The notes under the pieces: model-generated
Database searches by the model: none
What the model saw: only the letters and a program-made list of their open reading frames with translations
Told to the model about the DNA's origin: nothing
Source of the DNA: an uncultured Gammaproteobacteria bacterium
Lineage (GTDB): Bacteria > Patescibacteriota > Microgenomatia > UBA8517
Reading direction: 5' to 3'
NCBI GenBank assembly: GCA_964600575.1
Contig: CAZRJH010000001.1
Location: forward strand, 223,683 to 287,682
Length of the DNA stretch: 64,000 nt
Part shown: positions 13,487 to 34,986 of the stretch, piece by piece
Numbering within the stretch: the first letter of the stretch is position 1
Layout of the letters: each line of letters begins with the position of its first letter
Translations under genes and position numbers: made by a program

Positions 13487-13487
13487 T

Positions 13488-13715: not shown

Positions 13716-13769
13716 CAACTAAAGGTCATTCTCCTCGCAAATCCGATATCTTAATTCAAAAAATTTTTG

Positions 13770-14444: not shown

Positions 14445-14453
14445 TTTAATAAT

Positions 14454-14981: not shown

Positions 14982-14985
14982 ATTG

Positions 14986-15996: not shown

Positions 15997-16096
15997 ATGT
16001 ATTTACCCGGCCAACCATACGGCTAGAAGGGCAGTTAATAAATACTAACAATTTTTTACAACCGTGTCACAAGTAATTTAGATTTTACTAAATAAA

Positions 16097-17640: not shown

Positions 17641-19325
17641 TATTTAGTTATCAAATATCTTCCCATTACCAAAAAATCTATCGGGTTGTCGTAAAAATCG
17701 TATAACGCCTGTTCCGGTTTCTCTACAATGGGCTCGCCGTCAACATTATAGCTAGTATTGAGCACACACGGAATTCCTGTTTTGTTGTAAAAAGATTTTA
17801 TGACCTTATAGTACAACCCGTCTGTCGGATTTACAGTTTGCACTCGACAAGTTTTATCTTTGTGTACGACGGCGCTTATTAAATCTATTTTTTCAGATTT
17901 TGTTGGTAAGCAATAGTTCATAAAAGAGAAATTTGTATCGCTTTTGGGAACTTCGAAAAGAAAATTAATTTTATTTTCTAAAACCGAGGCGGCAAAAGGT
18001 CGAAAGGGCTCTCTTTTTTTTATAAGATTTACCTTGTTTTTCATCTCACGATTTTTCGGATTTGCAATTATGGACCTTGACCCGAGGGCCCTTGGTCCAA
18101 ATTCCATCCTACCTTCAAACCAGCCGACGATTTTGTCTTTAATCAACAAATCCGACACTCGTTCCGACAATTCGGTATCACTTTTAAACTTAACAAATTT
18201 TACTTCCTTAATTTTTAGAAGCGTTTCGATATACTCGTCAGAATAGAAATTGCCTAGTTTTAATGATTTCAAAGTTTTTCTTTTCGGATTTTTACCTGTC
18301 AACATATAAACAAAAAGTGCCGCCCCGATTGCACAGCCGCTGTCAACTGTAGCACCGGGATTGAAAACATTTTTAAATTTAGTTTTTTCAAAAATTTTGC
18401 CGTTGGCCAATGAATTTAAAGCAACCCCTCCACCTAACGATAAATTCTTGGATAAAGTTGAGTCATAGAGTTTGTTTAAAACCGAAAAATATATATCTTC
18501 TGTTACCTGCTGTATGCTTGCCGATATATCTTTGTGCCTTTTGCTTATTTTTCCACCGTAGACGCGCGGTTTGCCGAGAAGTTTTTCGAACTCTTTAGTC
18601 CACATCTTGTGAGATCTGTCGTATGAAAAGTATTTTTTATTTACAACAAAATTCCCGTCACCCTGAACATTAATCATTTTAAAAATTTGTTCTTTATATA
18701 TGGGACTGCCGTAAGCGGAAAGACCCATCATTTTGTACTCATCATTGTTAACTTTAAATCCTAAATACGAAGTGAAGGTGGAATAAACAAGCCCTAATGA
18801 GTTGGGGAAATTTAGACTCACTATTTTTTTAAGTTTGTTGCCCGACCCCTTCCACAAAACAGTTGATTCGTATTCACCAACGCCGTCAATTGTTAAAACA
18901 GCCGATTCTTTGTATGGAGACAAAAAATAAGAAAAGGCCGCGTGAGAGGTATGATGCGGCACAAAAAATATTTTGCCTTTAAAACCGGTTTTTTTTCTAA
19001 TTGTTTTTTCGACTTGAATCTTTTCACCAAGTGCGTCTTGAATGGTGTTTAAAAAATACTTAAAGGAAAAAGGAAATGTTTCAACATAAGTCGTGAGTAT
19101 CCTCTCTAGCTTAAGAACTGGTTTTTCGTAATATGCGATCGCATCCAAATCGCCAATAGCTATCCGAGAAAATTCTAGACACTTGTTAATTGCTTGCTCG
19201 GGAAAACCGTTGTCATGTTTAATTCTGGTGAATCGTTCTTCTTCGAAAGCACAAACAACCGATCCGTTCTCTATTATGGCGGCTGCGCTGTCGTGGTAAT
19301 AACTAGATAAACCTAATATTTTCAT
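17640..19325 (-). CDS. Carbamoyltransferase (NodU/CmcH family)
   Basis: MKILGLSSYYHDSAAAIIENGSVVCAFEEERFTRIKHD N-terminal ASKHA-like domain and a YrdC-like C-terminal half; 561 aa. Confidence 0.75.
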   Translation of the reverse strand: MKILGLSSYYHDSAAAIIENGSVVCAFEEERFTRIKHDNGFPEQAINKCLEFSRIAIGDLDAIAYYEKPVLKLERILTTYVETFPFSFKYFLNTIQDALGEKIQVEKTIRKKTGFKGKIFFVPHHTSHAAFSYFLSPYKESAVLTIDGVGEYESTVLWKGSGNKLKKIVSLNFPNSLGLVYSTFTSYLGFKVNNDEYKMMGLSAYGSPIYKEQIFKMINVQGDGNFVVNKKYFSYDRSHKMWTKEFEKLLGKPRVYGGKISKRHKDISASIQQVTEDIYFSVLNKLYDSTLSKNLSLGGGVALNSLANGKIFEKTKFKNVFNPGATVDSGCAIGAALFVYMLTGKNPKRKTLKSLKLGNFYSDEYIETLLKIKEVKFVKFKSDTELSERVSDLLIKDKIVGWFEGRMEFGPRALGSRSIIANPKNREMKNKVNLIKKREPFRPFAASVLENKINFLFEVPKSDTNFSFMNYCLPTKSEKIDLISAVVHKDKTCRVQTVNPTDGLYYKVIKSFYNKTGIPCVLNTSYNVDGEPIVEKPEQALYDFYDNPIDFLVMGRYLITK

Positions 19326-19326
19326 A

Positions 19327-19602
19327 TTAAAAAGGTGACTCTAGGTCTTTTTTGTTAAACAACGAATCGGGAACAATCCAAAAGTTGTTAGCCTTATTAT
19401 CTTTTTTAGAAAAATATTTAAAAAACTTGGCAAAGCCCACTCCAAGAACATAAACAGGAATTAAAATGGTTTTAAGAATAAATATGTTAATTTTTTTAAT
19501 CATTAAATGAGAGGGTAGAGAAATATTGGAACAGGGGAAAATTGAACAAAAACAACCAACAAAGAAACAATAATTAAAAATATAAAAAGCGGAATTAACC
19601 AA
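19327..19602 (-). CDS. Small hydrophobic membrane protein, function unknown
   Basis: 91 aa, two predicted TM segments, tightly packed in the operon. Confidence 0.3.
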   Translation of the reverse strand: MVNSAFYIFNYCFFVGCFCSIFPCSNISLPSHLMIKKINIFILKTILIPVYVLGVGFAKFFKYFSKKDNKANNFWIVPDSLFNKKDLESPF

Positions 19603-19638
19603 ATTTTTTTAGTTTTGGTTATTAGAATATAAATTTGC

Positions 19639-20643
19639 CTAAGGGTCTCCATAAGTTTTCATCAAATATGAACCAATTGAGTTCACCACCAAATTGTCAA
19701 AATCTCTTGTTGGGTGAAGTTTGTCGGTTGTGTCTTTTTGCTCATAAGCTTCTGGGCCACCATATGGAAGGGATTCTTCAACCATATCTACATATGGAAT
19801 GCTTCTGTTATTCAACAGTACTTTAATAGTATTTAATTCGCCTGTCCACTGTGATTTACCGAAAATGGGATATATAACAAAAAGAAGATCAGTTTTATTT
19901 TGTGAAGAAATGTGCTCAAGTGTATCAAGCGACTTGTTCATGGAGGCAAGTTTTGAATTCCAAACTTCTGTGCTAGGCCCAGCGTTCTCAAATTTTTTAT
20001 CTAATAATATATTCTTAAAAAGCAAAACCCGATAGATACTTGATTTTTCAAACATGAACTTGTTCAACTTAATACTAGGTTCTTCGGGCGATGACATAAA
20101 AGTTAATTTTCCATCCAAATTAAGAACAACCGGCGAAAAATCGAAGTCGTTTAGTGTAAACTGTATAATTAGGAGATCTGGATTCAACTTTGTTAAATGA
20201 TCTTGAAATAGGCTTACTTCTTGTTTAGTGTTATATGACTCCACGCCAATCTTAACTACTTGAACTTTTTTTTCTTTAAATATGCCCATAGAAATGATAT
20301 TGTCCTCCAAAGGCTTACCTATATTGGCCCGGTTTGTATTGGAGTCTCCCAAAATCATTATTTTAAATGTGTCATCGTCTTCATCTCCCAAAACTTTTGA
20401 GTCATTTTGTTCCTCCAATATTTCGGGGAAAGAACAGTTTCCCCAAACAGGCTCAAAACCCAAGTCAGACGAGGGTTTAAAACAGTTTTCATTGTTAAAG
20501 TTGTCATCAAAACTACGCCAATCTTTTATTGAATTTTCTAGGATCTTTGGCTCGATATATGTGCTGGAAAACATGTCAGAGAATACCAAAGCCAACGAGA
20601 GGAAAACAAAAAAAAGGGTCGCAGAAGTTATTTTGCTTTTCAT
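19639..20643 (-). CDS. Secreted SGNH/GDSL-type hydrolase-like protein
   Basis: Signal-peptide-like N-terminus; FKIMILGDSNTN GDS(N) motif block I. Confidence 0.5.
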   Translation of the reverse strand: MKSKITSATLFFVFLSLALVFSDMFSSTYIEPKILENSIKDWRSFDDNFNNENCFKPSSDLGFEPVWGNCSFPEILEEQNDSKVLGDEDDDTFKIMILGDSNTNRANIGKPLEDNIISMGIFKEKKVQVVKIGVESYNTKQEVSLFQDHLTKLNPDLLIIQFTLNDFDFSPVVLNLDGKLTFMSSPEEPSIKLNKFMFEKSSIYRVLLFKNILLDKKFENAGPSTEVWNSKLASMNKSLDTLEHISSQNKTDLLFVIYPIFGKSQWTGELNTIKVLLNNRSIPYVDMVEESLPYGGPEAYEQKDTTDKLHPTRDFDNLVVNSIGSYLMKTYGDP

Positions 20644-21305
20644 TTTTTGACAGCAACCAAGGACTTAACAAACAAACCATATTTTTCTTTGTAAATTTTT
20701 GCTTCAGGAAAAAGGGTTTCCATATCAGAATAACTCAATAAGTTCCAATCGCTATGTATATGCCTAATGCCCAACCAGTTGATTATCTTTCCAATAAGTA
20801 TTTGGATATTTCTAGGTAAAAAAATAAATAGCACAGGCATTAGCGTATGACTTTCAACTAGAAAGTATTTATTAGGCGTCTGAACAAAAAAACTTTTACC
20901 AACCCTTGCTATCTCTTTAGCAAAAGCTTGTTGTACAACAAAAGCTTTTCTTTTAAAAACTTTGTTACTCATGCCTAAAATTGCCTTTTTGTTTCCGGTT
21001 ACATGTTCTATTACCGAATTGCATAGTACTATATCAAAAGACTTGTCTTTAAAAGGTAGTTTAAAGTCTGCATTAATTATCTTTGTTTTGAAATCATGTT
21101 GCTTATTGGCAATATCAAGTAATTCAATATCATAATCTGCAACAACAATATTTTTTCTGTTAAGTTTGTCTGGGAATTTTTTTATAATTTCGTTTATATA
21201 GCTCCCATCACCTCCGCCAAGATCCAAAACAGTCTGTGTTTTTCGGGGTTTAATGCTTTTAACAAAAAGTCGAGCCCTACTGTTTCTAAAACTATTCAGT
21301 TTCAT
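20640..21305 (-). CDS. Class I SAM-dependent methyltransferase
   Basis: VLDLGGGDGSY SAM-binding motif. Confidence 0.6.
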   Translation of the reverse strand: MKLNSFRNSRARLFVKSIKPRKTQTVLDLGGGDGSYINEIIKKFPDKLNRKNIVVADYDIELLDIANKQHDFKTKIINADFKLPFKDKSFDIVLCNSVIEHVTGNKKAILGMSNKVFKRKAFVVQQAFAKEIARVGKSFFVQTPNKYFLVESHTLMPVLFIFLPRNIQILIGKIINWLGIRHIHSDWNLLSYSDMETLFPEAKIYKEKYGLFVKSLVAVKK

Positions 21306-21354: not shown

Positions 21355-22143
21355 GTGAATGCAAAAATGAAGGTTAAATTTAAAACTGATTACGCAAAAC
21401 GTTTTGCAGAAATTCTACTCGCACTTACAGAAAAAGAAAGTAAGATTAGATACGCCAGAACATTTTTTGGTAAAGGCTGGGTATTGCTTTTTCCTGTTAT
21501 TCAAATGCTAGTAATGGGTTTTATTTTTTCTTTCTTTATTAAGTTACCAAATTATTTTCAATTCTTGTTTGGAGGGCTTTGTATTTGGAATTTTTTTTCA
21601 ATTTCCATAACACGATCTTGCGTTAGTTTGGTCTCAGAGAGAATGTTGGTTCAAAAATCAAAGTTTCCAGTTGAAACGGTACCACTTTCGGTTGTTCTTT
21701 CAAATCTGGAGAACCTCATAATATCCGCAGTGTTGTTCATACTCTATTTGTTAATTACTAACAGCCTCGAGAGTGTCGATATCGCACTTCTATCTTACTC
21801 TCTAATAATGCTTATACTGCTAACGTCTGGTATTTCACTTCTGGTTTCGGTAATAAACGTATTTAGAAGAGACGTAAATTTCATAATACAATCCTTAATT
21901 CCTTTATTGTTTTATGCCACACCTATTTTATATAGACTTGACGACATTCCCGAAAAATTTCGCTTCGTTTTAATGCTAAATCCTATGAGCAGTATTGTAG
22001 TGGGATTCAGGTCTGCTTTCATGAGTCAGGAAACAACTCCATTTAATATGGTTGTTATTAACATTTTTACAGTGACGTTTATTTTTATATTGGGAATCAT
22101 GGTTTTCAAAATCAACAAAAACAAAATACCAGACTATTTATAA
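21355..22143 (+). CDS. ABC-2 type polysaccharide/teichoic-acid exporter permease (Wzm/TagG-like)
   Basis: Six TM topology; ABC-2 family N-terminal pattern (RYARTFFGKGWVLLFPVIQML); followed by the ATPase. Confidence 0.7.
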   Translation: MNAKMKVKFKTDYAKRFAEILLALTEKESKIRYARTFFGKGWVLLFPVIQMLVMGFIFSFFIKLPNYFQFLFGGLCIWNFFSISITRSCVSLVSERMLVQKSKFPVETVPLSVVLSNLENLIISAVLFILYLLITNSLESVDIALLSYSLIMLILLTSGISLLVSVINVFRRDVNFIIQSLIPLLFYATPILYRLDDIPEKFRFVLMLNPMSSIVVGFRSAFMSQETTPFNMVVINIFTVTFIFILGIMVFKINKNKIPDYL

Positions 22144-22144
22144 A

Positions 22145-22885
22145 ATGGAAGATTCAAGGGAACTTATAAAATTAACAAACGTAACCAAAGATTTTTATAT
22201 AAAAAGAGGCACCTTTTTCGCCGTAAAGTCTCCAAAGAGAGTTACCGCGGTAAAAAATATTAATTTAACTATTTCAAAAGGCGAACGAATAGGAATAGTG
22301 GGGGCAAATGGTTCAGGAAAAACAACTCTTTTAAAAATTATCTCTGGAATAACAACACCGACAAAAGGAGTAGTGCAAGCAATAGGCAAGATAGTATCAA
22401 TAATGAAAATTGAGGCTGGTTTTAATCAAGATCTCAACGGGTATGAAAATCTAAAACTTAACGGCTTGTTGACCGGAATGTCCGGCAAGGAAATTGAGAG
22501 AAAGACTAAAAAAATAATTAAATTTTCCGAGTTGGAAAAGCATATGGACTCACCACTTTATACTTATTCAGATGGGATGCGCTTTAGGCTTGCTTTGGCT
22601 ATCGCGTTTGCAAGTGAGTGCGACCTGCTTTTGATAGACGAGGTGATAGTCTCAGGAGATATAAATTTTCAAGAAAAGACAATAGACACTATAAACAGCA
22701 TTCAAAAAAAGGGAGGGGCAGCTACAGTTATTACTTCACACATACCTTCCTTTGTTTGGGCATTTTCTAATGTTTTTTATGAAATGCAAAACGGAGAAAT
22801 CAAAAAAATTTCTTACAAAAAAATGGAGAGCGAGGTTAAGAGAGTAGATGCAACTTGGAGAAAAAAGATCTTAACAAAAATATGA
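22145..22885 (+). CDS. ABC transporter ATP-binding protein (Wzt/TagH-like, no C-terminal carbohydrate-binding domain)
   Basis: Walker A GANGSGKTTLLK, signature YSDGMRFRLALA, Walker B LLLIDE. Confidence 0.8.
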   Translation: MEDSRELIKLTNVTKDFYIKRGTFFAVKSPKRVTAVKNINLTISKGERIGIVGANGSGKTTLLKIISGITTPTKGVVQAIGKIVSIMKIEAGFNQDLNGYENLKLNGLLTGMSGKEIERKTKKIIKFSELEKHMDSPLYTYSDGMRFRLALAIAFASECDLLLIDEVIVSGDINFQEKTIDTINSIQKKGGAATVITSHIPSFVWAFSNVFYEMQNGEIKKISYKKMESEVKRVDATWRKKILTKI

Positions 22886-23574
22886 AAAAAATACTAAACG
22901 ATTTGGGACTCACAACTTTGCTTAGAATATTAACATTCAGAAGTTTTGATATAAACATTTTCAATAAACAGTTTTCCAAGTTATTAATCGACGTTTATGA
23001 CGGATATTGGGGACATTCAGTTTCAAGAAAAAACGGAGATTTAGGGTTTGGGTTTTTTCATTTTGGACTCATAGCAGCACACAAACCAAAAAGAGTTTTA
23101 TGCGTCGGTTCTCAAAAAGGGTTTATACCCGTTATTTGTGCATTGGCTTGTAAAAGCAACAATAAAGGTCATGTAGATTTTGTTGATGCCGGATTTGATG
23201 AAGGTCACCCAAAAGCCTGGAGTGGCATAGGTTTTTGGAGAAAAGTAAATCTGAATAAGCATTTTGCCAAGGCGGGAGCAGAAAACTGGATAACCACTCA
23301 TGTTTTGACAACAGAGGATTTTGCCAAAAAAAATAAAAGAAGATATGACTATATTTATATTGACGGGGATCATTCCTATGAAGGAGTAAAAAGAGATTAT
23401 AAAATTTTCTGGCCACTACTAAACAAAGGTGGATTTATGGCGTTTCACGATGTTCTAGCAGAAGGGTCGTTTAGATCTAAATATAATTTTGGTGTATGGA
23501 AGTTGTGGAAAGAAATAAAGAATGAAAAAATTTATTTTAGTCGTTTGCCGGGACTGGGAATACTGCAAAAATGA
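22882..23574 (+). CDS. Class I SAM-dependent methyltransferase (Methyltransf_24/TylF-CmcI-like)
   Basis: YDYIYIDGDHSYEGVKRDY motif typical of CmcI/TylF-like O-methyltransferases; ATG overlaps the upstream TGA (ATGA). Confidence 0.5.
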   Translation: MKKILNDLGLTTLLRILTFRSFDINIFNKQFSKLLIDVYDGYWGHSVSRKNGDLGFGFFHFGLIAAHKPKRVLCVGSQKGFIPVICALACKSNNKGHVDFVDAGFDEGHPKAWSGIGFWRKVNLNKHFAKAGAENWITTHVLTTEDFAKKNKRRYDYIYIDGDHSYEGVKRDYKIFWPLLNKGGFMAFHDVLAEGSFRSKYNFGVWKLWKEIKNEKIYFSRLPGLGILQK

Positions 23575-24758
23575 AATTTCCTGAGAATGCTTCTAATAAA
23601 ATAAAGATGTTTTTGGAGTTTAGTAAAATCAAGTCTTCTTTCTCAAGACAGCACTCTGTGAACATGCTCTCCTTGCTAACCCCAAACATAGATAGAAATG
23701 CTCTCTACGCTCACAAACAACTAATAAAGTTTAACCCCGATAATCACGGAATGTGGGTTAATCAATCCGAAAGGACCAATAAACACAACTCCCAAAGGCT
23801 AGAGTCTGAAGTAATTCAAATGACACTTGGTCTAATGGGTTGCCCAAGCAGTAAATTTACCGGTTACTTGGGCAGCGGGGGCACAGAATCAAATATCTAT
23901 TTGGCATGGGTAGGCAGGAACTATTTAAACAAAAAATTCCCGGGAGGAAATCTTTCGCTGCTAAAAACCGACTTAACACACCACTCAATAGACAAAGCCT
24001 GCAACATTCTCTCGCTCACAAGTCATACCCTAAAACTAAACGAAAAATCGTGGTCTATTGACTTAAACGAGTTTTCAAAAACTATACAAAAATTGTCACA
24101 AACTGGTTACAAAAAGTTTTTACTACCTTTGACTTTGGGTTACACCCTAACAGGAACATCAGATGATGTGGAGGCAATATGCAAGGAGCTAAAAACCCTT
24201 CAAAAAAAGTTAAAAATAAAATTCTATGTTTGGATTGACGCCTCCTTCAACGGTCTGCCATCTGCAGTTAGAACCAACAATTTTAACCCTTTCAAAAATC
24301 CTGAGGTAAAAGGATTGCTTATGGACTTTCATAAAACAGGTTTTGTTTCACTTACAGCTGGCATGATTCTGTTAAGACGCGGTTTCGAAAAAAATGTCGA
24401 GACAAAAAGTATATATCTCGATTTCAAAGATTTCACCTTATCGGGTTCTAGAACAGGCATACGAGCGGCAGAATGTTGGTATACCATTAAGAGTCTAGGG
24501 CGGAAAGGTTACCTGGACAAATACAAACAAATTATCAACAGCAGAAACAAAATAATAAATTTTTTGGAAAATGAAAGTGACTTAAAAATTATATATAATG
24601 ACCAAAGCTTGCATTGCGGTGTTATTCTTAAAAGCAACAAAAGCAAAAAAAGCTTTTATGAAAAAAAATACGGTTTGAAATTTAAGAACACAAAGTTATT
24701 GTTTACAAAAGGAAAATTAAATTTTTTAATAAGCCGATGTTTTTTTATAAATAAATGA
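23571..24758 (+). CDS. PLP-dependent group II decarboxylase-like enzyme
   Basis: GYLGSGGTESNIYLA (S.GGTESN motif) and DFHKTG (PLP-lysine D.HK motif). Confidence 0.55.
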   Translation: MKFPENASNKIKMFLEFSKIKSSFSRQHSVNMLSLLTPNIDRNALYAHKQLIKFNPDNHGMWVNQSERTNKHNSQRLESEVIQMTLGLMGCPSSKFTGYLGSGGTESNIYLAWVGRNYLNKKFPGGNLSLLKTDLTHHSIDKACNILSLTSHTLKLNEKSWSIDLNEFSKTIQKLSQTGYKKFLLPLTLGYTLTGTSDDVEAICKELKTLQKKLKIKFYVWIDASFNGLPSAVRTNNFNPFKNPEVKGLLMDFHKTGFVSLTAGMILLRRGFEKNVETKSIYLDFKDFTLSGSRTGIRAAECWYTIKSLGRKGYLDKYKQIINSRNKIINFLENESDLKIIYNDQSLHCGVILKSNKSKKSFYEKKYGLKFKNTKLLFTKGKLNFLISRCFFINK

Positions 24759-25864
24759 AAACAAATATCCATATCCAAGAATTTACTTTTGACGATGTTC
24801 TTCTTGTTCCAGGAAAGTCAAAATTTGAACTCGCAGAAGAGAACACTATCGAAATTTCTTCATACCTAACTAATAAAATACGCATAAAAAATCCTGTGGT
24901 TTCCGCCAATATGGCGACAGTTACCGAAACGGATATGGCAATCACAATGGCGGATTTGGGTGGGGTTGGAATAATACACCAGTTTATGGATTACGAAAGA
25001 CAACTTAAAGAAGTCAAAAAAGCAAAATCAAGGTCGGAAATAGTCGGTGCGGCAGTTTTTAGTTATGGAAACAAAATTTTAGAACACTCGCTTAACCTAA
25101 AAAGATCTGGCTGCGACGTTCTTGTTGTAGATAGTGCAAACGCACATAACAAACAAGCAATGGATCTTATCTATCAAATTAAAAAAAGGGTCAAAATTCC
25201 ATTAATTGCAGGCAATGTCGCAACAGCAGAAGCAGTTAAAGACTTAGTTAAAATCGGAGTAGACGGAGTAAAAGTCGGTATAGGTCCTGGTTCACATTGT
25301 ACGACAAGGTTAGTAACAGGTTTTGGAAGGCCTCAATTATCAACAATCAAAGATTGTGTTTCGGTAGGTAAAAAATACGGCATTCCCATAATGGCAGACG
25401 GCGGAATCAGAACTCCAGGCGATGCCGTTAAAGCAATAGCTTTTGGTGCAAGCACAGTCATGATTGGCGGTATGTTTGCGGGAACCAAACAAAGTCCCGG
25501 AGATTTGATAAAAAAGAACGGAGCCCTATACAAAATGTCCTGGGGCAACTGCACCAACGAGGCTTATAAGTGGACTTTTTCAAAAGAAAACATCAAGTCT
25601 CAAATTAAAAAAATCATTAAAACCTACTTGTATTCACAAAGGGAGGATTTGTCTTCAAGTTTTTTGGAGGAGGGTGTATCTGGTTTAATAGAATACAAAG
25701 GCGACGTAGAAAAAATATTTTTAGAAATAGCTGGCGGGATAAGGCGCGGCTTATGGTACGGTGGTGCCAAGGATATAAAAGAGTTTCAAAAGAAAATAAA
25801 GTATGTTTTAATCACAAACTCTACACTCCAGGAAAATAAAGCCAGAATTGCAAATGACTTCTAA
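24755..25864 (+). CDS. IMP dehydrogenase / GMP reductase family protein without CBS domains
   Basis: [10 protein letters not shown]-terminus; catalytic loop [11 protein letters not shown] (IMPDH signature GIGPGSICTT); 369 aa leaves no room for a CBS pair. Confidence 0.65.
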
Positions 25865-26765
25865 AATATTAATAGACACGGACCCGGGTTTCGACGACTC
25901 GATCGCTCTGCTTTTAGCGCTTTCTTCCTGCGAAAATAGAGTGTTTGGAGCAGTATCGGTTTTTGGCAATCATTATTCTAGGCTAACTTATTCTAATTTG
26001 TCGTATGTTGTAGAAATTGCAAAAAGTCTTGGAGGGGATAACCCATTGATTGCTAAAGGTGTAGACAGACCGTTGATTAAAAAATATTCACCATTTTACA
26101 AAATCCACGGCAAAGTAGGTTTAGGCGCGAGCCAACTCGAATATACTAAACATAAAACAATTGTAGACTTCGAGAATGTTTATAAGAATTTTTTAAACAA
26201 AAACATTCCTAACAAAAAAATACTTATGCTTGGACCATTAACAAATCTTGCAAAATACCTTGAAAAATATCCCGAAATGATAAACAAACTTCCGGAAACT
26301 GTTGTAATGGGCGGTTCGTTTTTTACAAAAGGGAACTACTCCGAGTCGATTGAGGCAAATTTCGGACACGACCCAGAGGCAGTATCAGCGGTTTGGGGTT
26401 CCGCTATTAAAAATGTGGTAATTGTTCCACTTGATGTTACCGAAAAGTTTGTGTTTGATCCTGCAGAACTTATCAATATCAAATCTAAAAAATTGAAAAA
26501 TTTCATTAAGATTTCAGGGGAGACATACTTTTCTTATTATAAAAATAACAAAAATGAACCAAAAGTTCCTATCCATGACGCTTTAGCATATATTTACACA
26601 CAGAAACCGGAATATTTCGAGGTATCATACGTGGGCACGAGAATTAAAAAAGATGGACAAATTGTCCTCGACAAAGATTCGAGTAGAAAATGTTTCGTAG
26701 TTTGCAGCTTTAACAAATCAAAGGTATACAACTACTTTTTCAAGCATATGAATTTTTATACTTAA
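25848..26765 (+). CDS. Inosine-uridine-preferring nucleoside hydrolase family protein
   Basis: N-terminal IDTDPGFDDSIALLLAL (DXDXXXDD calcium/ribose-binding motif). Confidence 0.75.
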   Translation: MQMTSKILIDTDPGFDDSIALLLALSSCENRVFGAVSVFGNHYSRLTYSNLSYVVEIAKSLGGDNPLIAKGVDRPLIKKYSPFYKIHGKVGLGASQLEYTKHKTIVDFENVYKNFLNKNIPNKKILMLGPLTNLAKYLEKYPEMINKLPETVVMGGSFFTKGNYSESIEANFGHDPEAVSAVWGSAIKNVVIVPLDVTEKFVFDPAELINIKSKKLKNFIKISGETYFSYYKNNKNEPKVPIHDALAYIYTQKPEYFEVSYVGTRIKKDGQIVLDKDSSRKCFVVCSFNKSKVYNYFFKHMNFYT

Positions 26766-26774
26766 GTTTATTTA

Positions 26775-27554
26775 ATGGATAAATTAACAAAATTAGTTGC
26801 AGAGAAAACAATTGAGCAAAAGTGTGCTTACATATCGGCAGAATTCGTTGAAGACTTACACATCAAGGTCCGCGGTAAGTATGTTAGATTTCATAAAATT
26901 CTCTGGGATTATTTACCAGAATCGAGCACTAAGGTTTTAACAGAAACGGCAAAAGCCGTTTCAAAATTAGCAATTTCTTCAAATGCGGAGATAATTTTAG
27001 GCATAGAAGCATCCGGAATAGCTGTGGCGTCAGTAGCCAGTGTTATATCTGGTAGAAAATTCGGGTTTATAAGAAAGAAGAGTAAAACTTACGGTTTGCA
27101 AAGAATCATCGAAGGTGAGTTTTCAGAAAATAAAAGAGCCATCATCGTCGATAATTTTTACTTTTCAGGTGGAACTCTAAAATCAGCAATTAATAAAGCA
27201 AGGGCAGTAGGGCTAAAAGTCATTCTTGCAGTATGTGTTGACGGATTCACGGAACTAGCAAATCCCAGAATGATTAACGGAGTGCCTGTCAAAATACTTA
27301 TAAACAACAAGGAGAAGGTTAAATATTTACTAAAGAAAAAATACTTTCCTAAAAATCTGACACCTTATATAGCTGATTATATTGAAAATCCGCTTCTTTA
27401 CATTGAAAATTCCGAAACTTATATAAACTTTACCAACGAAATTAAGAAACATAAAAACAATCAGGTTGTTATTGAAACCAAAAACAGAAGCCATCTTAAT
27501 AATTTTTACAAAAAAATATTGAAGTTCCTGAATGCCCTAAAAATACCCATTTAG
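26775..27554 (+). CDS. Type I phosphoribosyltransferase (orotate-PRTase-like)
   Basis: FGFIRKKSKTYGLQRIIEG resembles the OPRT RKE.K.HG...IEG block; PRPP-binding loop AIIVDNFYFSGGT. Confidence 0.55.
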   Translation: MDKLTKLVAEKTIEQKCAYISAEFVEDLHIKVRGKYVRFHKILWDYLPESSTKVLTETAKAVSKLAISSNAEIILGIEASGIAVASVASVISGRKFGFIRKKSKTYGLQRIIEGEFSENKRAIIVDNFYFSGGTLKSAINKARAVGLKVILAVCVDGFTELANPRMINGVPVKILINNKEKVKYLLKKKYFPKNLTPYIADYIENPLLYIENSETYINFTNEIKKHKNNQVVIETKNRSHLNNFYKKILKFLNALKIPI

Positions 27555-28110
27555 AAGACTTATTTAAATTTCCAGCTGCTCGAGTTGGTCCTTTGAGACC
27601 ATCATGGTTCATCTTTATATTTTTACAGTCATGAATGCACAATATTCCTCCAAAAACAAGTTTTTTTGTCCAGTGCCTTAAGTCGGAATCAATCGCCAAG
27701 TCTGTGTGATCCCCGTCAATAAACAAAAAACCAATTTTGCGTTTGAACTTCTTTTGTGCTTCAAAAGATTTTTTGGGAATTATCTTGATTTTATTGGCTA
27801 AATTAAATCTTTTAAAAAGCTTTCGACAATAATTAAGATTTTCCTTAATGTTATTAATGTTTAAATATTTAAGATGTTCTAAAAGATAGGGTTTCGAGAT
27901 TGCATCCCTTTGGAGATTAAAAGGGTCTACGGTATAAAGCTTAGAGCTAAAATTCAAACTTGACATAGCCGACGCAATTACAACAGCGGACCCGCCGCGC
28001 CACGTACCTATCTCGACCACATCCAATTTTCTATTGGCGTTGTTTAAATATTTAACTAAGGCAAAAATTTCTCTTTGTGTAATTAATCCTTCTGGTGATG
28101 GGAATTTCAA
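27496..28110 (-). CDS. Class I SAM-dependent O-methyltransferase-like (Methyltransf_24)
   Basis: VVEIGTWRGGSA SAM motif and FIDGDH motif. Confidence 0.55.
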   Translation of the reverse strand: MKFPSPEGLITQREIFALVKYLNNANRKLDVVEIGTWRGGSAVVIASAMSSLNFSSKLYTVDPFNLQRDAISKPYLLEHLKYLNINNIKENLNYCRKLFKRFNLANKIKIIPKKSFEAQKKFKRKIGFLFIDGDHTDLAIDSDLRHWTKKLVFGGILCIHDCKNIKMNHDGLKGPTRAAGNLNKSSKWVFLGHSGTSIFFCKNY

Positions 28111-28230: not shown

Positions 28231-29724
28231 TTAATCATTTGAAGTAATAAATTTATAAATCTGTCTTAAGTAAGAGACGGAATAATTTTCGTTGATATTT
28301 TTAGACCACAAATGTTCAATTTTATTGAAATCGTCCGTGATCGTATGACCTTTGCTCACAAACAATTTAAAACTTGGGTCATCGGTTTCGTGATAAATCG
28401 ATGAAGATATCTCCTTGTTTATTTTTGAAACAATATTCAAATTGTCGGTAGCTAAAAAAATCACATAGGACGGATGCATTTCAGGTGTAAGACTAAGGAA
28501 ATACACTTTGTTAAATGTTTTTCTTAAAGTGTGCCCAACAGAGTTAACCAAATCGTCACTCCCGTCCGATTTGCCAATAATATGTGTAATAAATATGCCT
28601 CCAGTATTTAACTTTGACTTAACAACTGTGTTGAACTCGTGTGAATAAACATGGGCGACAGGTGATATGTTGGTTAAAAGGTCATTGTATATAATGTCAT
28701 ATTTAGTCTCCACTTTTCTCAAGTACAACCTTGCTTCTTGATTGATAAAGGAGTTTTTTTCATCATTCCATCTACCATTAACAACTTTTATCATTTCCAA
28801 AGTTTTGGGGTTAATGTCTACCAAATCATATGAGACATCGTTATCGCTCCAATAGTCTGTGTATGTGCCCAGCCCTGCTCCCAAAATAAGCATTTTGGGG
28901 TTGTCTAGCGACTTTGCAGCATAATATATGAATTTTTGATAACTAACTATTTTATTTTCTTTGTCAAAACACCCTTGCTGGTTTGAGTCGATCAAAAGAC
29001 AATATATCCCGAAGCTGTTGGTAGATATATTTATAATTTCATATTTGGCATCAAAGTTTGTGTATGAATATATTATTCTCGGATCTTTTGTTTTGTTTTG
29101 AGTTAGCACTTGGCCTGTCAAAATAACAAACACCAAAGCAACATAGCCAGGGAAAAATCGATAGTTCAAAAGTAAACCCGTTAGCACAAGAAGCATCGCA
29201 GCCAATAAAAATATGGCAGTTAGCGACAAGTGTGGGATCAACAAGTAGGAGGATATCAACGCCCCAACAAGTGACCCCAAAGTTCCCAGGGCATAGACAA
29301 CCCCAATTAATTTCTCAGTCGATTTTTTATCAAGAAACAACAATCTGGTTAAAAATGAAGTAGTAACACCCATAGAAACAAAGGCCAAAGAAAATAACAA
29401 AGAAGAAGCAACCAAAGGGGCAGAACTTAAAGAAAATTTGTCGGAAAAATTTAATATTTGATTACGTAAGCTAAACGGAAGTATTGTCATGATTGCTGAA
29501 ATTAACAAATTCATCTGTAAATGGTTAATTTCTAGATTTTTAAAAATTTTTGATCCAAGTAAATATCCAAACGAAAGAAATCCCAAAGTTACACTAATTA
29601 ATGCAGTCCAAACATATATCGTTGAGGCGTAGTAGGGAGCTATTACTCTTGATCCAACTACCTCCACAACCAAAGAAACAAGTCCGTTTAAGAAAGAGAC
29701 AAAAAGCAACAAGTTACTGTTCAT
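28231..29724 (-). CDS. Polytopic membrane protein fused to a spermidine-synthase-like (aminopropyl/methyltransferase fold) domain
   Basis: About 220 aa N-terminal multi-TM region, then MLILGAGLGTYTDYW...DLVDINPK, typical of the spermidine-synthase-like Rossmann domain. Confidence 0.5.
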   Translation of the reverse strand: MNSNLLLFVSFLNGLVSLVVEVVGSRVIAPYYASTIYVWTALISVTLGFLSFGYLLGSKIFKNLEINHLQMNLLISAIMTILPFSLRNQILNFSDKFSLSSAPLVASSLLFSLAFVSMGVTTSFLTRLLFLDKKSTEKLIGVVYALGTLGSLVGALISSYLLIPHLSLTAIFLLAAMLLVLTGLLLNYRFFPGYVALVFVILTGQVLTQNKTKDPRIIYSYTNFDAKYEIINISTNSFGIYCLLIDSNQQGCFDKENKIVSYQKFIYYAAKSLDNPKMLILGAGLGTYTDYWSDNDVSYDLVDINPKTLEMIKVVNGRWNDEKNSFINQEARLYLRKVETKYDIIYNDLLTNISPVAHVYSHEFNTVVKSKLNTGGIFITHIIGKSDGSDDLVNSVGHTLRKTFNKVYFLSLTPEMHPSYVIFLATDNLNIVSKINKEISSSIYHETDDPSFKLFVSKGHTITDDFNKIEHLWSKNINENYSVSYLRQIYKFITSND

Positions 29725-30398
29725 TTTATTTTGTAAAGCAATTTGCGGATAAATCTAAATTTGAGGTATTTAGGCAATTCTAATACTGTTGCGGATCTTG
29801 TATTACCAGAAATAGCGCTACCTACACCATGTGTGTCCATGCCTAGCTTTTTTGCTGGAATAATATCCATATTGTCAAAGTCACCGACCATAAGAATTTC
29901 TTTGGGTTTCAGGTTAGAAAACTGCAAAACACCCCTAAACATCTTAAGATTTGGCTTGAGTGTTTTTTCACTATCCGAAGAAAAGACCTTTTCAAAAAAT
30001 CTAAGTTTTCCTGGCTTCTCTACAAAACCCAAACGATCTAAAACCTTGAAGGTGTTTTCTTGAGTAGAGTTTGTCAAGACAAAGTGTCGATACTTTTTAA
30101 GTTTACTAAACAAACTCAACAACTCTGGACTACGTTTAGCAAATAAATGGCGCTTAATTTTCTTCTCCATTTCCAGAACTATATCAAGTTCGTTTTTTTT
30201 GGTAATCAAAAAAGCAGTCTTAATCCAATTGTTGTTGGCAGATACTTTTTCGAAACGCTTTTTTGCATAAACCAAACCATCGCCTGTGTATTTAGAACAG
30301 ATGGAAATTAAAACTTTTTTAATTGATGAGGCAGTTTTTTCGCTATAAAAAAGTGTCCCATCCAGATCCCATACTATAGCTTTGATTTTGGAGTTCAT
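29721..30398 (-). CDS. HAD-superfamily hydrolase
   Basis: Motif I AIVWDLDGTLF; motif IV GDFDNMD. Confidence 0.6.
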   Translation of the reverse strand: MNSKIKAIVWDLDGTLFYSEKTASSIKKVLISICSKYTGDGLVYAKKRFEKVSANNNWIKTAFLITKKNELDIVLEMEKKIKRHLFAKRSPELLSLFSKLKKYRHFVLTNSTQENTFKVLDRLGFVEKPGKLRFFEKVFSSDSEKTLKPNLKMFRGVLQFSNLKPKEILMVGDFDNMDIIPAKKLGMDTHGVGSAISGNTRSATVLELPKYLKFRFIRKLLYKIK

Positions 30399-30399
30399 T

Positions 30400-30897
30400 T
30401 TAAGTTCTTCCGTATAATTTAGGTATAAAATTTTGGAGTGATTTTCTCGTTCTTTTGGAAACGTAGTTAGACATAAGTATAGATGATGCTAGTGAATGCA
30501 GGTTCTGTAGCTTGGCATCAACAATATTTTTGTCATAAACAAAGTCTGCAATTAGACTCAAGTTACTAAATTCTTTTATATATCCAAGTTTGTAAGTCTG
30601 GAGGTAAATATCCGGTCCGGTTCTGGAGATATAGTTAAGTAAGATGTTTTTTTGTTTATTTGTCTTACGAGATAAATAAACAACTTGAATGATATTTAAT
30701 TTATAAAAAAATATTTCCAGTATATACAAAGCTTCGGATAGTATTGGAACAAAAAGAATAGGAGAGTGTCTAATTTTGATTAAGCGAAGCTTTGGATTAA
30801 CCATAGATATTTTTAGACCTGATAAAAAGATCTTCTCTGACAAAATTATATGGATTGACTTTAATGTTGGTGTTAGATGAGTGCGTATTGTATGCAT
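30400..30897 (-). CDS. Hypothetical protein
   Basis: ORF only; its 5' end overlaps the 3' end of the upstream GT2 ORF by about 100 nt in another frame. Confidence 0.25.
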   Translation of the reverse strand: MHTIRTHLTPTLKSIHIILSEKIFLSGLKISMVNPKLRLIKIRHSPILFVPILSEALYILEIFFYKLNIIQVVYLSRKTNKQKNILLNYISRTGPDIYLQTYKLGYIKEFSNLSLIADFVYDKNIVDAKLQNLHSLASSILMSNYVSKRTRKSLQNFIPKLYGRT

Positions 30898-31570
30898 ACA
30901 ACTTTCGATTTATATATTTATAATTATCACCGTACATTTTTATTAAGGGTAAATACGTACACAAGTCAAAGCAATACCTAAACCATTTTGTAGAATTTTC
31001 CATAAAATTTGTTTTAGGAATACTATTGAATGAATCAAACCTAAAAGTCATCGGGTGAAATACACGAAAAGGCTCTCTTAAAAAGTTTCCGTTCTTGATG
31101 GATGATTTTTTATATCGAGTGTTTAGTAATAGATATTTATCATCTTCAGACTTATTGATATATTCATATCCGTTCCATATAACACAACTACCATAAGTGA
31201 ACTTTAATTCATGGCCTGAGTACTCCTGTGCAAGATAAGAAAGTGCACCCTTGTCTACCAGCCAATCGTCGGCATCTACAACCACTACAACAGAGTTGCG
31301 TCTTCTAACATATTTGTGCAACATGTCGTAGGCATTAAATACGGAATACAAACGGTCTTTTCTAAAAACGCATTCGTGCTTTTTAAGTCTTTCTTTTATA
31401 TAGTTGATTTCACTTCTGCTATAATCCGAGGCGTCGTCTACATACAAAATTTTAAAATTTTGGTAGGTTTGATTAAGTACAGAGTGAACACTTTTGTCAA
31501 AATATTCAAATGAATTCCAAGATCTCATCAGTATATAAAAAAACGTTTCTGGGGAAGTTGGTTTCAACAT
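30797..31570 (-). CDS. Family 2 glycosyltransferase (GT-A fold)
   Basis: FYILMRSWNSFEYFDKSVHSVLNQTYQNFKILYVDDASD (GT2 N-terminal Rossmann with the DXD-like VDDAS). Confidence 0.6.
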   Translation of the reverse strand: MLKPTSPETFFYILMRSWNSFEYFDKSVHSVLNQTYQNFKILYVDDASDYSRSEINYIKERLKKHECVFRKDRLYSVFNAYDMLHKYVRRRNSVVVVVDADDWLVDKGALSYLAQEYSGHELKFTYGSCVIWNGYEYINKSEDDKYLLLNTRYKKSSIKNGNFLREPFRVFHPMTFRFDSFNSIPKTNFMENSTKWFRYCFDLCTYLPLIKMYGDNYKYINRKLYAYNTHSSNTNIKVNPYNFVREDLFIRSKNIYG

Positions 31571-33045
31571 ATTTTAATTTAGACGATGCTTTTTTCGCCA
31601 TTATAACACTCACGTTTTGCTTTATTGCCTTATCAACTATATTTGGCACATCACTAAAACTAGCAACAATACTACTCATGGCCACAGGGATAATCTTATA
31701 CATAAAATATCAGAATCTTTATAGAAGTTTTTTCCTTATAGCTTTATTCTCTCTACCAATTATCAATCCTGGTAAATACTACGAACAGGAGTTGTTGGGA
31801 ATATCCCAGATAACAAACATTTTGGCTTTTGACTCGGGTAGATATGTAAGTTACGGTATAAACTTAACTTCAATATTCTTATCAATTTGTTTGGTTTTGG
31901 TGTTTGCGGAATATTTCAAATCCAAAAATAAAAAGGGGGTAATAAAGCACCTAATTGAAAAAAATACATATTTAGTAATAGCTGCATTTGGCTTCCTAAT
32001 TTCAGGGTTAGGCACAAGCATTGTTTTTTCACCTTTTGTGAGTCTTTCATCTGTATGGACAATACAATACTCACAAATTTTCCTTGTAGGTTTTCTTTTT
32101 TATTTTTTTTGGAGATCTCATCCAAACAACTCTAAACTGTTTTACTCAACAATCTCAGTAATGATTATTCTCCAGACACTTATATCAATCGGTCAATTTA
32201 TTAAACAATCAACTTTGGGGCTACCGATAGAGGTTTACTTGGACAAGCAATTTTATTACGGTGCAGACGAGATAAGCAGCCTCGCAAGAGTTGTTGGCAC
32301 TTTTTATTATCCCAACGGGTATGCATTCATAGCCAACTTAATTATTTGTTTTTTGTTACCGAAAGCGTTCAAAAAAAACAGCTTATACACATTGGCTGTT
32401 TTAGCTGGATATTTATCCATTGCATTGACCCAAAGTAGGTCAAACTGGATATCGGCTTTTGCTATTTTTGTGGTTTACTACAATGTTTATCTTAAAAATT
32501 ATAAAAACATATTGAAATTTGTAAACAAAAGAGCATTTTTATACCTAACCCTAATAATTGTAGCCGCGCTGTCTTTCGTGGTTACACCAAGATTACTGAT
32601 ATCCGCCAACTTTTATAACGAAAACGGGGGGTGGGAATTAAGAAGTAAGATGTTTACTGAAGGGTGGGAGGCTTTTTACAATTCACCATGGTTTGGTTTT
32701 GGCGCAGGAACAAATGAAACAGTACTAAATTCTTATTTCCCAGATGGAGTTACTTCAGTATTTCCATTGCCTGTTCTCCTTGCCCCCCTACAGATGCTTT
32801 TGGAATTTGGCCTTATCGGTTGTTTATTTTTTATAATTCCTGCCTACATTGTGTTGCGTAGAATCTTTAACAAACTGGCAAAGGGGCTTTCTTTGGTGTC
32901 CGACAATTTGGTCTTTACATATATTTGTGCAAATGTAGTTATATTAGTTCATTACTTTTTCCAGAATCACTATGGCGCAATGGAGTTCACTTTTTTGGGT
33001 CTTGTATTAGGGTCCGGGTTGATTGCATCAGACATTGAAAGCTGA
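31510..33045 (+). CDS. Polytopic membrane protein, Wzy/O-antigen polymerase-ligase-like
   Basis: At least 10 predicted TM helices with a periplasmic loop containing LTQSRSNW; location in the glycan island. Confidence 0.4.
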   Translation: MNSKISSVYKKTFLGKLVSTYFNLDDAFFAIITLTFCFIALSTIFGTSLKLATILLMATGIILYIKYQNLYRSFFLIALFSLPIINPGKYYEQELLGISQITNILAFDSGRYVSYGINLTSIFLSICLVLVFAEYFKSKNKKGVIKHLIEKNTYLVIAAFGFLISGLGTSIVFSPFVSLSSVWTIQYSQIFLVGFLFYFFWRSHPNNSKLFYSTISVMIILQTLISIGQFIKQSTLGLPIEVYLDKQFYYGADEISSLARVVGTFYYPNGYAFIANLIICFLLPKAFKKNSLYTLAVLAGYLSIALTQSRSNWISAFAIFVVYYNVYLKNYKNILKFVNKRAFLYLTLIIVAALSFVVTPRLLISANFYNENGGWELRSKMFTEGWEAFYNSPWFGFGAGTNETVLNSYFPDGVTSVFPLPVLLAPLQMLLEFGLIGCLFFIIPAYIVLRRIFNKLAKGLSLVSDNLVFTYICANVVILVHYFFQNHYGAMEFTFLGLVLGSGLIASDIES

Positions 33046-33057
33046 TATAAAGACCGT

Positions 33058-34963: not shown

Positions 34964-34986
34964 TTAAGTAAATTGATTCTACAATC

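Follow-up and report, generated by a model that had tools for sequence, protein, structure and literature searches.

A 64-kb window of contig CAZRJH010000001.1 (64,000 nucleotides, the whole stretch of DNA analysed here) carries, within a glycan-export island, three consecutive plus-strand genes for a protein of the IMP dehydrogenase (IMPDH)/GMP reductase (GMPR) family, an inosine-uridine (IU)-type nucleoside N-ribohydrolase and a type I phosphoribosyltransferase (PRTase) that resembles orotate phosphoribosyltransferase (OPRT). Our analysis directly supports a dedicated, conserved cassette in glycan-export loci whose signature enzyme, the IMPDH-like protein, is without the hydrolase device of IMPDH. 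That the trio serves the glycan locus, as a dedicated pathway to a ribotide-derived unit for the exported glycan and not as a general supply of nucleotides, we hold to be somewhat short of an even chance, with a probability of about 0.45. An initial annotation of this DNA had offered three explanations for the trio, namely salvage genes inserted by chance, synthesis of a nucleoside- or base-derived unit for the surface glycan, and a module that generates a ribosyl donor. The second is the best supported of the three, its support consisting of genomic context and residue conservation, from which we infer the class of substrate, the order of the steps and the attachment to the glycan.

A clade outside the characterised IMPDH and GMP reductase families

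The open reading frame list and a Pfam search confirm the positions of the three genes and a 369-amino acid IMPDH-family protein without the usual pair of CBS domains, as the initial annotation had described it. The protein is a single continuous IMPDH domain (PF00478), residues 10–362 of which align with profile positions 2–343 of 345, and the Pfam search returned no match to CBS (PF00571). The catalytic loop, also noted before, is present in the alignment and begins at residue 175. When scored against the curated NCBIfam models, the protein does not attain the threshold of any relevant equivalog: it reaches 311.8 bits with IMP dehydrogenase TIGR01302 (cut-off 481.5), about 235 bits with the models for GuaB1 and GMP reductase with CBS domains (549–675), 199.7 and 176.1 bits with the GMP reductase models NF003966 (344) and NF003470 (397), 167.7 and 165.8 bits with two further GMP reductase models among TIGR01305 and TIGR01306 (492 and 466), and 91.8 bits with GuaB3 (342).

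A database search with the window protein returned about 30 CBS-less relatives of 365–399 residues and 41–68% identity, and canonical IMPDHs ranked after them. In a neighbour-joining tree on 342 columns, with the alignment anchored on the annotated GuaB and GuaC of Escherichia coli, these relatives are monophyletic (bootstrap 173/200) and lie outside four groups, namely the E. coli GuaC branch, a haloarchaeal group, GuaB1-like sequences, which carry a TRGMAS motif and form a branch of their own, and the canonical IMPDHs. The window protein is 30% identical to E. coli GuaC. The initial annotation had asked for a placement among GuaB, GuaC and IMPDH-related protein clades; the protein is neither GuaB nor GuaC and belongs to a separate clade without the Arg-Tyr dyad of IMPDH. 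The AlphaFold2 model has a mean predicted local distance difference test score (pLDDT) of 88.7, with low confidence only in the flap insert (residues ~268–300), and matches IMPDH catalytic domains with a TM-score of 0.88 and a root mean square deviation of 1.4 Å (Foldseek). Given the scores below every cut-off, the separate clade and the match in fold, we conclude that the window protein is a member of the IMPDH/GMPR superfamily that belongs to none of its characterised families. Literature searches yielded nothing specific on a described member of this clade or on an IMPDH in glycan loci of Patescibacteria, and as far as they show, the clade and its signature are undescribed.

Paralogues of IMPDH that are not IMP dehydrogenases have a precedent in mycobacteria, where GuaB1 is a GMP reductase with CBS domains and GuaB3 is a CBS-less IMPDH-related protein without a catalytic loop (PMC9790621). 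The window protein differs from GuaB3 in that it keeps this loop.

The active site keeps the catalytic core and loses the flap dyad

Four sequence features that are absent from the canonical enzymes mark the clade in the alignment (GSHCTTR, GRPQ, SWG[N/M]C and RRxxWY). The catalytic loop reads GSHCTTR where canonical enzymes have GSICTTR, TGxGRPQL replaces GxGVPQ, (S/T)WG(M/N)C(T/S) replaces YRGMGS (SWGNCT in the window protein), a longer Lys-rich insert takes the place of the flap sequence DRYFQ, and GGxRR(G/S)xWY that of GGLRSGMGY. IMP, NAD and catalytic positions were tabulated in five groups, with 35 members of the clade, using the contact positions of the human IMPDH2 and T. foetus literature. 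The nucleophile Cys182, together with Thr184 and Glu306 (equivalent to Glu431), is invariant in 35 of 35 members, and S329, D364 (Asp in 28, Glu in 7), M70, M385, G387 and G413 are kept as well.

IMPDH and GMPR both have Cys319, Thr321 and Glu431, and the flap-borne Arg418 pathway, by which water is activated for hydrolysis, is specific to IMPDH (PMC2525682). The Arg-Tyr dyad on this flap, present in 16 of 16 canonical IMPDHs, is absent from the window protein and from the whole clade. It is also missing from the GuaC-like and GuaB1-like groups, so that the pattern seen in the clade, a Cys/Thr/Glu core without the flap dyad, matches the pattern of these groups. Four positions that are invariant in all sampled IMPDH and GMPR groups are replaced in the clade: D71 by Pro, Ala, Ser or Met, R412 mostly by Trp and also by Ala, Leu or Phe, G/A415 by Cys in 34 of 35 members (Cys266 of the window protein), and S440 by Arg in all 35 (Arg331). 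In addition, G443 has become Trp in 33 of 35 (Trp334), the Val of GVPQ has become Arg (Arg192), and I330, which precedes the nucleophile, has become His (His181), a change common only to the clade and the haloarchaeal CBS-less group. The NAD contacts D274 and N303, invariant in the other groups, vary in the clade (D17/E10/Y5/F2 and N17/L9/P7/V1, respectively), and the window protein retains both, as D126 and N154. These residues directly support a signature enzyme that, to judge by its sequence, is built for binding a ribotide and forming a covalent Cys adduct.

The haloarchaeal sequences just mentioned, from genomes L017–L074, are a separate CBS-less IMPDH-like group with the GSHCTTR loop, without the Arg-Tyr dyad and with the other invariant positions kept. 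No conserved neighbours were found for this group, the neighbourhoods of which are dominated by spurious high-GC open reading frames.

Dinucleotide contacts, and several of the base contacts as well, differ between members of the clade, as they might if the IMPDH-like Cys oxidised some phosphorylated metabolite other than a nucleotide. Such an enzyme would help to make an amine substituent (e.g. ethanolamine- or choline-like) for the glycan, with the hydrolase and the PRTase as passengers, and it would suit the constant partners of the gene described below, namely methyltransferases, a phosphatase and an amino-acid decarboxylase akin to those for histidine and serine. However, 14 of the 18 IMP-contact positions of human IMPDH2 are kept, including the ribose-binding Asp/Glu, the phosphate-binding Ser/Gly and Glu431, and nucleotide-type neighbours recur independently in the related loci (IU-type hydrolase with PRTase, a DUF4406 protein and a P-loop kinase). 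We therefore give the idea of a non-nucleotide substrate little credence.

A conserved cassette in glycan-export loci

Genomic contexts were obtained for ten members of the clade by exact-protein look-up and for five more from a scan of species-representative genomes. One of the five scanned loci proved to be on a contig already looked up, and removal of further duplicates left 13 loci, the window included, which were annotated by BLAST against the window proteins and with Pfam and NCBIfam. The loci come from candidate-phyla bacteria, Candidatus Shapirobacteria among them, and in one case from a Candidatus Pacearchaeota archaeon. Glycan genes lie beside the IMPDH-like gene in all 13. A phosphatase of one HAD subfamily is encoded in 12 and directly adjoins the IMPDH-like gene in eight of the nine distant loci; the window HAD is of the same subfamily as those that adjoin the gene in the distant loci (L008–L015). 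A Methyltransf_24 protein and an ABC-2 exporter are each found in 11 loci, and a radical S-adenosylmethionine (SAM) protein is paired with a MetW-like methyltransferase in four, L012 having the radical SAM gene alone.

A pyridoxal 5'-phosphate (PLP)-dependent decarboxylase is likewise encoded in 11 of the 13 loci, where it belongs to fold-type I in six and to the LysA/FslC-like (Orn/DAP/Arg-type) fold-type III in five (L008, 8793–9995; L011, 11128–12312; L014, 7897–9048; L015, 11942–13216; L016, 13481–14692). This exchange of one fold for another is a non-orthologous displacement, which strongly suggests that decarboxylation and the reaction of the IMPDH-like enzyme are steps of one pathway. 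The window decarboxylase is of fold-type I. It matches the NCBIfam model for histidine decarboxylase with E = 3.4e-35, below the cut-off, has histidine and serine decarboxylases as its best matches in the Protein Data Bank (PDB), and contains the HK lysine.

The hydrolase and the PRTase are encoded in four of the 13 loci, namely the window and three lineages (L002, L006 and L007) with IMPDH-like proteins at least 57% identical to that of the window. The search of related genomes for the same trio inside glycan loci that the initial annotation had proposed thus finds it in these three lineages; the other nine loci are without hydrolase and PRTase. A stand-alone trio with unrelated neighbours, the contrary outcome named in the initial annotation, was looked for elsewhere and was not found. 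Because the gene order of the trio recurs in three further lineages, the arrangement is not due to chance. The proteins have diverged at different rates, identities to the window in L002, L006 and L007 being 68, 59 and 57% for the IMPDH-like protein, 77, 58 and 60% for the first Methyltransf_24 protein (MT24a), which is among the most conserved in the locus, 46, 33 and 34% for the hydrolase and 50, 44 and 40% for the PRTase. The last two genes are the fastest-evolving syntenic genes, still with their catalytic motifs, and have almost no relatives beyond the trio loci; neither looks like a widely distributed housekeeping salvage enzyme. The trio is not the evolutionary unit, and the conserved core consists of Methyltransf_24, PLP decarboxylase, IMPDH-like protein and HAD phosphatase.

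For contrast, a canonical IMPDH from a Patescibacteria genome, which has the YRGMGS sequence and the Arg-Tyr dyad and is also CBS-less, sits among purL, purM, purQ, purA and folD. Since this enzyme too is without CBS domains, their absence is ordinary in this bacterial group, and what sets the window protein apart is its glycan context and altered active site, not the loss of CBS.

These data bear on whether the trio is ordinary purine/pyrimidine salvage, with no link to the glycan genes beyond a common operon, such that the hydrolase would release a base, the PRTase would convert it to a nucleoside monophosphate and the IMPDH-family enzyme would interconvert IMP, XMP and GMP for the whole cell. 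The three proteins come from the same superfamilies as the canonical enzymes (IunH/Rih, HGPRT/APRT, GuaB and GuaC), their activities form a coherent chain, and all catalytic motifs are intact, as are the Cys/Thr/Glu core and the NAD contacts D126 and N154 of the window protein. The Thr-Glu relay can hydrolyse the intermediate without Arg418, albeit slowly (PMC2525682), and no second IMPDH, GuaA, PurA or PurM is encoded in the 64-kb window, which is part of a 346-kb contig. What sets the trio apart from canonical salvage is an IMPDH-like protein that lies below every curated GuaB and GuaC cut-off and outside both groups, in a separate clade without the Arg-Tyr dyad, with a remodelled base pocket in which the otherwise invariant D71, R412, G/A415 and S440 are replaced. 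The members of this clade whose loci were analysed are all encoded among glycan genes (13/13), with HAD, decarboxylase and methyltransferase partners, whereas purine genes surround a housekeeping CBS-less IMPDH from this bacterial group. Being lineage-restricted and fast-evolving, the hydrolase and the PRTase are unlike housekeeping salvage enzymes as well. We consider cell-wide salvage unlikely, and the narrower suggestion that salvage genes were inserted here by chance is disfavoured by the operon-like packing with the exporter, the gene order shared by four lineages, the 13 glycan loci and the canonical IMPDH among purine genes.

Several of the related loci have features of their own. In the archaeal locus (L015, Candidatus Pacearchaeota archaeon, JBAZCR010000001.1), the segment 1354–15775 encodes HAD, IMPDH-like protein, Methyltransf_24, fold-type III decarboxylase, radical SAM protein, methyltransferase, ABC-2/ABC proteins and a carbamoyltransferase; the presence of the same cassette in an archaeon (DPANN) and in bacteria suggests transfer between domains. 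In L016, which is without the HAD, a 150-residue DUF4406 protein (9464–9916, minus strand) that matches a phage 'nucleoside 2-deoxyribosyltransferase' family adjoins the IMPDH-like gene, and in L013 the adjoining gene encodes a 185-residue P-loop kinase (11106–11663, minus strand) resembling PSTK and polynucleotide kinase. These two independent neighbours point to nucleotide chemistry. Both loci are labelled 'uncultured Pseudomonadales bacterium', a label with which their sortase, candidate-phyla-type cassette and DUF4330 content looks inconsistent, and the genome bins may be misclassified.

The nucleoside hydrolase and the phosphoribosyltransferase

The hydrolase probably starts at the ATG at 25854, which gives a protein of 303 residues and matches the gene call of the public assembly. 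It scores 189 bits against PF01156 (cut-off 34.2). Its best equivalog is RihC, with 137.8 bits (cut-off 382), and it is not an equivalog of RihA, RihB, RihC or UriH. The motifs DTDPGFDD, LGPLTN, EANF and IHD are kept in the hydrolases of all four trio loci, and on this basis the protein is predicted to be a competent N-ribohydrolase. The L002 orthologue is its only close relative, and the nearest sequence outside the trio loci is only 35% identical.

The PRTase scores 28.5 bits against Pribosyltran (PF00156), just over the cut-off of 26.3, and its best NCBIfam match is OPRT (TIGR00336), with 47.8 bits and thus below the cut-off of 106.8. The loop that binds phosphoribosyl pyrophosphate (PRPP) reads IIVDNFYFSGGT; it is of the right length and has the SGGT part, with VDN in place of the two acidic residues, the second of which is Asn. 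The earlier description of an OPRT-like enzyme with a divergent PRPP loop therefore stands. In family alignments the Asn of VDN is conserved across the small PRTase family and is thus a family trait, not decay. The features of this family are a VDN(F/Y)xF(S/T)GGT loop and a C-terminal helical 'GYFP...YI' extension, both of which are present in about 12 full-length relatives. A word-indexed homologue search returned a single relative, and an exhaustive HMMER profile search of 1.84 billion representatives returned only five at E <= 1e-30. As far as literature searches show, this tiny VDN-type family is undescribed. One more distant relative, from a metagenome scan with five such sequences, lies in a 2.8-kb locus that has toxin-antitoxin-like and CYTH-like neighbours (judged by eye) and no IMPDH.

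The best sequence match of the PRTase in the PDB is OPRT/UMP synthase (E = 1.7e-7; phmmer). The AlphaFold2 model, with a mean pLDDT of 90.5, has OPRT structures as its top Foldseek matches (TMt 0.59–0.80, E down to 7.8e-14), followed by adenine phosphoribosyltransferase (APRT). These matches bear on the ribosyl-donor or ribofuranosylation module, for which there is precedent: two-step enzymes of this kind operate in bacterial polysaccharide synthesis (PMC11127046, PMC11194591, PMC11294581), and a gPRT domain combined with a HAD phosphoribose phosphatase makes up the PRPP-dependent ribofuranosyltransferase, the prototype of which is PDB 7shg (PMC11294581). The window locus is comparable in that it encodes a PRPP-using transferase, a HAD and an ABC transporter among polysaccharide genes. 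However, the 50 best PDB matches of the PRTase model are OPRT and APRT structures and do not include 7shg, nor is 7shg among the phmmer matches at E <= 1. The window HAD has generic PDB matches only. The two genes are neither fused nor adjacent, being 2.2 kb apart and on opposite strands, and it is the IMPDH-like gene, not the PRTase gene, with which the HAD travels, as it does in nine loci without PRTase. The identity of the window PRTase as a glycan phosphoribosyltransferase is unsupported by sequence or fold, and we regard the module, weakly supported as it is, as very improbable.

Three of the four lineages with hydrolase and PRTase carry a fused major facilitator superfamily (MFS)/spermidine-synthase-like gene, and the nine loci without the two enzymes all lack it. 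Such an association would be expected if the two enzymes recycled by-products of SAM-dependent reactions, the hydrolase freeing adenine from adenosine-type by-products and the PRTase converting it to AMP, with the IMPDH-like protein working separately in the core cassette; the window locus has at least three class I methyltransferases in addition to the fused protein. IU-type hydrolases depend on the ribose 5'-hydroxyl, and 5'-methylthioadenosine is therefore an unlikely substrate. Further points against recycling are that L007 has hydrolase and PRTase and no spermidine-synthase-like gene, that both the sequence and the modelled structure of the PRTase are nearer to those of OPRT than of APRT, and that the correlation comes from one subclade. 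On balance, the recycling of by-products appears improbable. In L006, a single product of 745 residues (12859–15096, minus strand) joins the HAD, as its N-terminal part, to the MFS/spermidine-synthase membrane protein, which suggests that dephosphorylation is coupled to a membrane step. In L007, a predicted membrane protein of 505 residues (11163–12680) without a family match is encoded between the IMPDH-like and hydrolase genes; it was considered as a diverged spermidine-synthase fusion and rejected, as it is unrelated to the MFS/spermidine-synthase protein.

Gene layout of the locus and its glycan island

The trio makes up the last three genes of a seven-gene plus-strand run (21355–27554; Table 1). 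Pfam and NCBIfam confirm its flanks as first described, a PLP decarboxylase/exporter block on one side and methyltransferase and glycosyltransferase genes on the other. All junctions in the run are overlaps or gaps of at most 9 nt. The ATPase gene starts 1 nt after the end of the permease gene, the stop of the decarboxylase gene overlaps the start of the IMPDH-like gene in ATGA (24755–24758), and the IMPDH-like and hydrolase genes overlap by 11–17 nt (25848/25854–25864). The initial annotation had described the three genes as overlapping; these last two junctions do overlap, and the hydrolase and PRTase genes do not, being 9 nt apart. In a consensus scan, the sole plus-strand terminator-like match within the unit lies at 22602–22623, inside the ABC ATPase gene. 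No plus-strand terminator-like site follows 22623, and hence none separates the ATPase gene from the trio; the promoter and terminator scans returned fewer matches than in shuffled sequence, and are uninformative beyond this point. Rfam and tRNA scans of the window gave no match.

Table 1. Genes of the seven-gene run, the neighbouring convergent genes and the two arms of the glycan island, in window coordinates
Feature	Position	Strand	Evidence
Island, left part: Bac_transf initiating sugar transferase, NodU-like carbamoyltransferase, GDSL-like protein, Methyltransf_11	17017..21305	-	Pfam, NCBIfam
ABC-2 type exporter permease (first gene of the seven-gene unit)	21355..22143	+	Pfam ABC2_membrane, E = 3.1e-16
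ABC exporter ATPase	22145..22885	+	Pfam ABC_tran, E = 1.4e-23
Methyltransf_24 SAM-dependent methyltransferase (MT24a)	22855..23574	+	Pfam PF13578, E = 1.3e-18
Fold-type I PLP-dependent decarboxylase (histidine/serine/MfnA-decarboxylase-like)	23571..24758	+	Pfam Pyridoxal_deC, E = 1.9e-12
CBS-less IMPDH/GMPR-family protein, 369 aa	24755..25864	+	Pfam IMPDH, E = 1.6e-107
IU-type nucleoside N-ribohydrolase, 305 aa from TTG (likely ATG 25854)	25848..26765	+	Pfam IU_nuc_hydro, E = 2e-55
OPRT-like type I phosphoribosyltransferase, 259 aa	26775..27554	+	Pfam Pribosyltran, 28.5 bits
Second Methyltransf_24/TylF-like methyltransferase	27496..28110	-	Pfam PF13578, E = 6e-18; TylF, E = 2.8e-6
Fused MFS/spermidine-synthase-like membrane protein	28231..29724	-	NCBIfam NF037959, E = 1.9e-44, above cut-off
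HAD-IA phosphatase (DLDGT motif)	29721..30398	-	Pfam Hydrolase, HAD_2
Island, right part: GT2, Wzy_C protein, DUF4330 protein, four GT4-type glycosyltransferases	30797..39594		Annotation

The PRTase gene and the second Methyltransf_24 gene are convergent, and their 3' ends overlap by 59 nt (27496–27554). The window HAD, the gene of which stands alongside a minus-strand GT2 gene in this convergent group, matches TIGR02253 and the pyrimidine 5'-nucleotidase models of NCBIfam, in all cases below the cut-off. The glycan island (~18000–44000) has a G+C content of 0.32–0.36, against 0.38–0.44 in its flanks. Seven open reading frames of 154–714 residues without a Pfam match (E <= 0.001) lie within the glycosyltransferase block and beyond its right end (37248–38417 and 39558–46627). 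At the other end, PilM, PilO-like and PilX_N-like genes of type IV pilus assembly (13770–16996, minus strand) abut the initiating sugar transferase of the island, an adjacency that is kept in two related loci (L002, 234–2227; L006, 886–4075). Because this adjacency is conserved and the island encodes a Wzy_C ligase-like protein, the glycan might be destined for a pilin or another surface protein.

A proposed pathway to a ribotide-derived glycan unit

In the pathway that we favour, the trio would serve the exported glycan by providing it with a ribotide-derived unit. The IMPDH-like protein would be a neofunctionalised IMPDH/GMPR-family enzyme that still binds a ribonucleoside-5'-phosphate-like substrate, with Cys182 attacking an amidine-type ring carbon, aided by Thr184 and Glu306. 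With the Arg-Tyr flap that serves IMPDH in hydrolysis of the covalent intermediate lost, and the residues around the base remodelled, this step would probably be GMPR-like, or a new exchange or redox reaction at C2 of a purine-like ribotide, rather than the conversion of IMP to XMP. The HAD phosphatase would take off the 5'-phosphate of the product, and the decarboxylase and Methyltransf_24 would contribute or modify a part of this product that carries an amine or a methyl group. To this core the window lineage would have added two helpers: the OPRT-like PRTase, which would join a scavenged base to PRPP to give the ribotide substrate, and the IU-type hydrolase, which would free the base from scavenged nucleosides or else release the finished base. 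The product, or the glycan bearing it, would leave the cell through the co-encoded ABC-2 exporter.

A more specific version, which we put forward as a long shot, is that the thioimidate formed by Cys182 on a purine ribotide is captured by an amine and not by water, giving an N2-aminoalkyl purine nucleotide. The amine would be made by the translationally coupled PLP decarboxylase, or would be decarboxylated by it later, and dephosphorylation by the HAD, followed in the window lineage by N-ribohydrolase action, would lead to a non-carbohydrate substituent of the surface glycans of candidate phyla and DPANN archaea. Half of the clade has lost dinucleotide contacts, Cys266, His181 and Arg192 are essentially invariant extra residues, and the fold-type I decarboxylase is swapped for the LysA/FslC-like fold-type III one; each of these observations is consistent with amine capture, without demonstrating it.

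Several points weigh against a ribotide-derived glycan unit. We know of no glycan that is decorated with a purine or any other base. The three activities make up a textbook salvage route, from nucleoside through base and nucleoside monophosphate to interconversion, and genes in small genomes of this kind can share operons without sharing a function. The context loci come mostly from related uncultured lineages and are not fully independent, so that the counts given above overstate their independence, and in the window itself the HAD gene lies apart from the trio. In about half of the clade members both dinucleotide contacts are lost, and the clade, to judge from its residues, may not be functionally uniform. 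Because D126 and N154 are retained, the window protein could yet act as a slow IMPDH that relies on the Thr-Glu relay, or as a GMP reductase.

Comparison with known systems

By analogy, the cassette would work most like a nucleoside-tailoring module. In the biosynthesis of tubercidin and toyocamycin, a PRPP-dependent PRTase (TubE/ToyH), a GMP-reductase homologue of 385 residues (TubD/ToyE) and a phosphohydrolase (TubG/ToyI) build a modified nucleoside (PMC6112128). In both cases a type I PRTase, a CBS-less IMPDH/GMPR-family enzyme of about 370–385 residues and a phosphatase are encoded together, ToyE and TubD being compared here by description only. Outside primary metabolism, the Toy/Tub enzymes start from a free base and make a modified nucleoside, as we propose for the cassette. 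The two systems differ in that the cassette lies in a glycan-export locus and the Toy/Tub genes lie in an actinomycete antibiotic cluster, in that the window PRTase is OPRT-like and not purine-PRTase-like, and in the constant partners of the cassette, a PLP decarboxylase and Methyltransf_24. As no GTP cyclohydrolase I, CPH4 synthase or QueE-type radical SAM protein is found among the annotated genes of the window island, the cassette is not a member of the Toy/Tub pathway. A QueE or 7-deazapurine role was also considered for the radical SAM genes of the related loci and rejected, these being SPASM/NirJ/AhbD-like.

A second likeness, again by description, is to the aminopropylation of microcin C, in which MccD and MccE, a SAM enzyme of the methyltransferase fold and a fold-type III PLP decarboxylase, work together on a substrate that is linked to a nucleotide. 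Our cassette similarly pairs Methyltransf_24 and a PLP decarboxylase near a nucleotide-type enzyme; it differs in having no peptide-adenylate genes and in that half of the cassettes use a fold-type I decarboxylase.

Significance for nucleotide enzymes and surface glycans

IMPDH and GMP reductase are among the best-studied enzymes of nucleotide metabolism, and to our knowledge no other chemistry is described on the IMPDH fold beyond the GMP-reductase homologues of the nucleoside antibiotics and the uncharacterised GuaB3. Each protein of the trio belongs to a known superfamily. As far as our literature searches show, the fixed partnership of the IMPDH-like enzyme with a HAD phosphatase, a decarboxylase of either fold and Methyltransf_24 in glycan loci of candidate-phyla bacteria and one DPANN archaeon is undescribed. 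A clade that keeps the core of covalent catalysis, drops the hydrolase flap and remodels the base pocket points to an unassigned reaction. Genes of this clade are at present labelled 'IMP dehydrogenase', and counting them as purine metabolism would mislead metabolic reconstructions. The cassette possibly makes a new class of glycan decoration on ultra-small uncultured bacteria and archaea, whose surfaces mediate attachment to their hosts.

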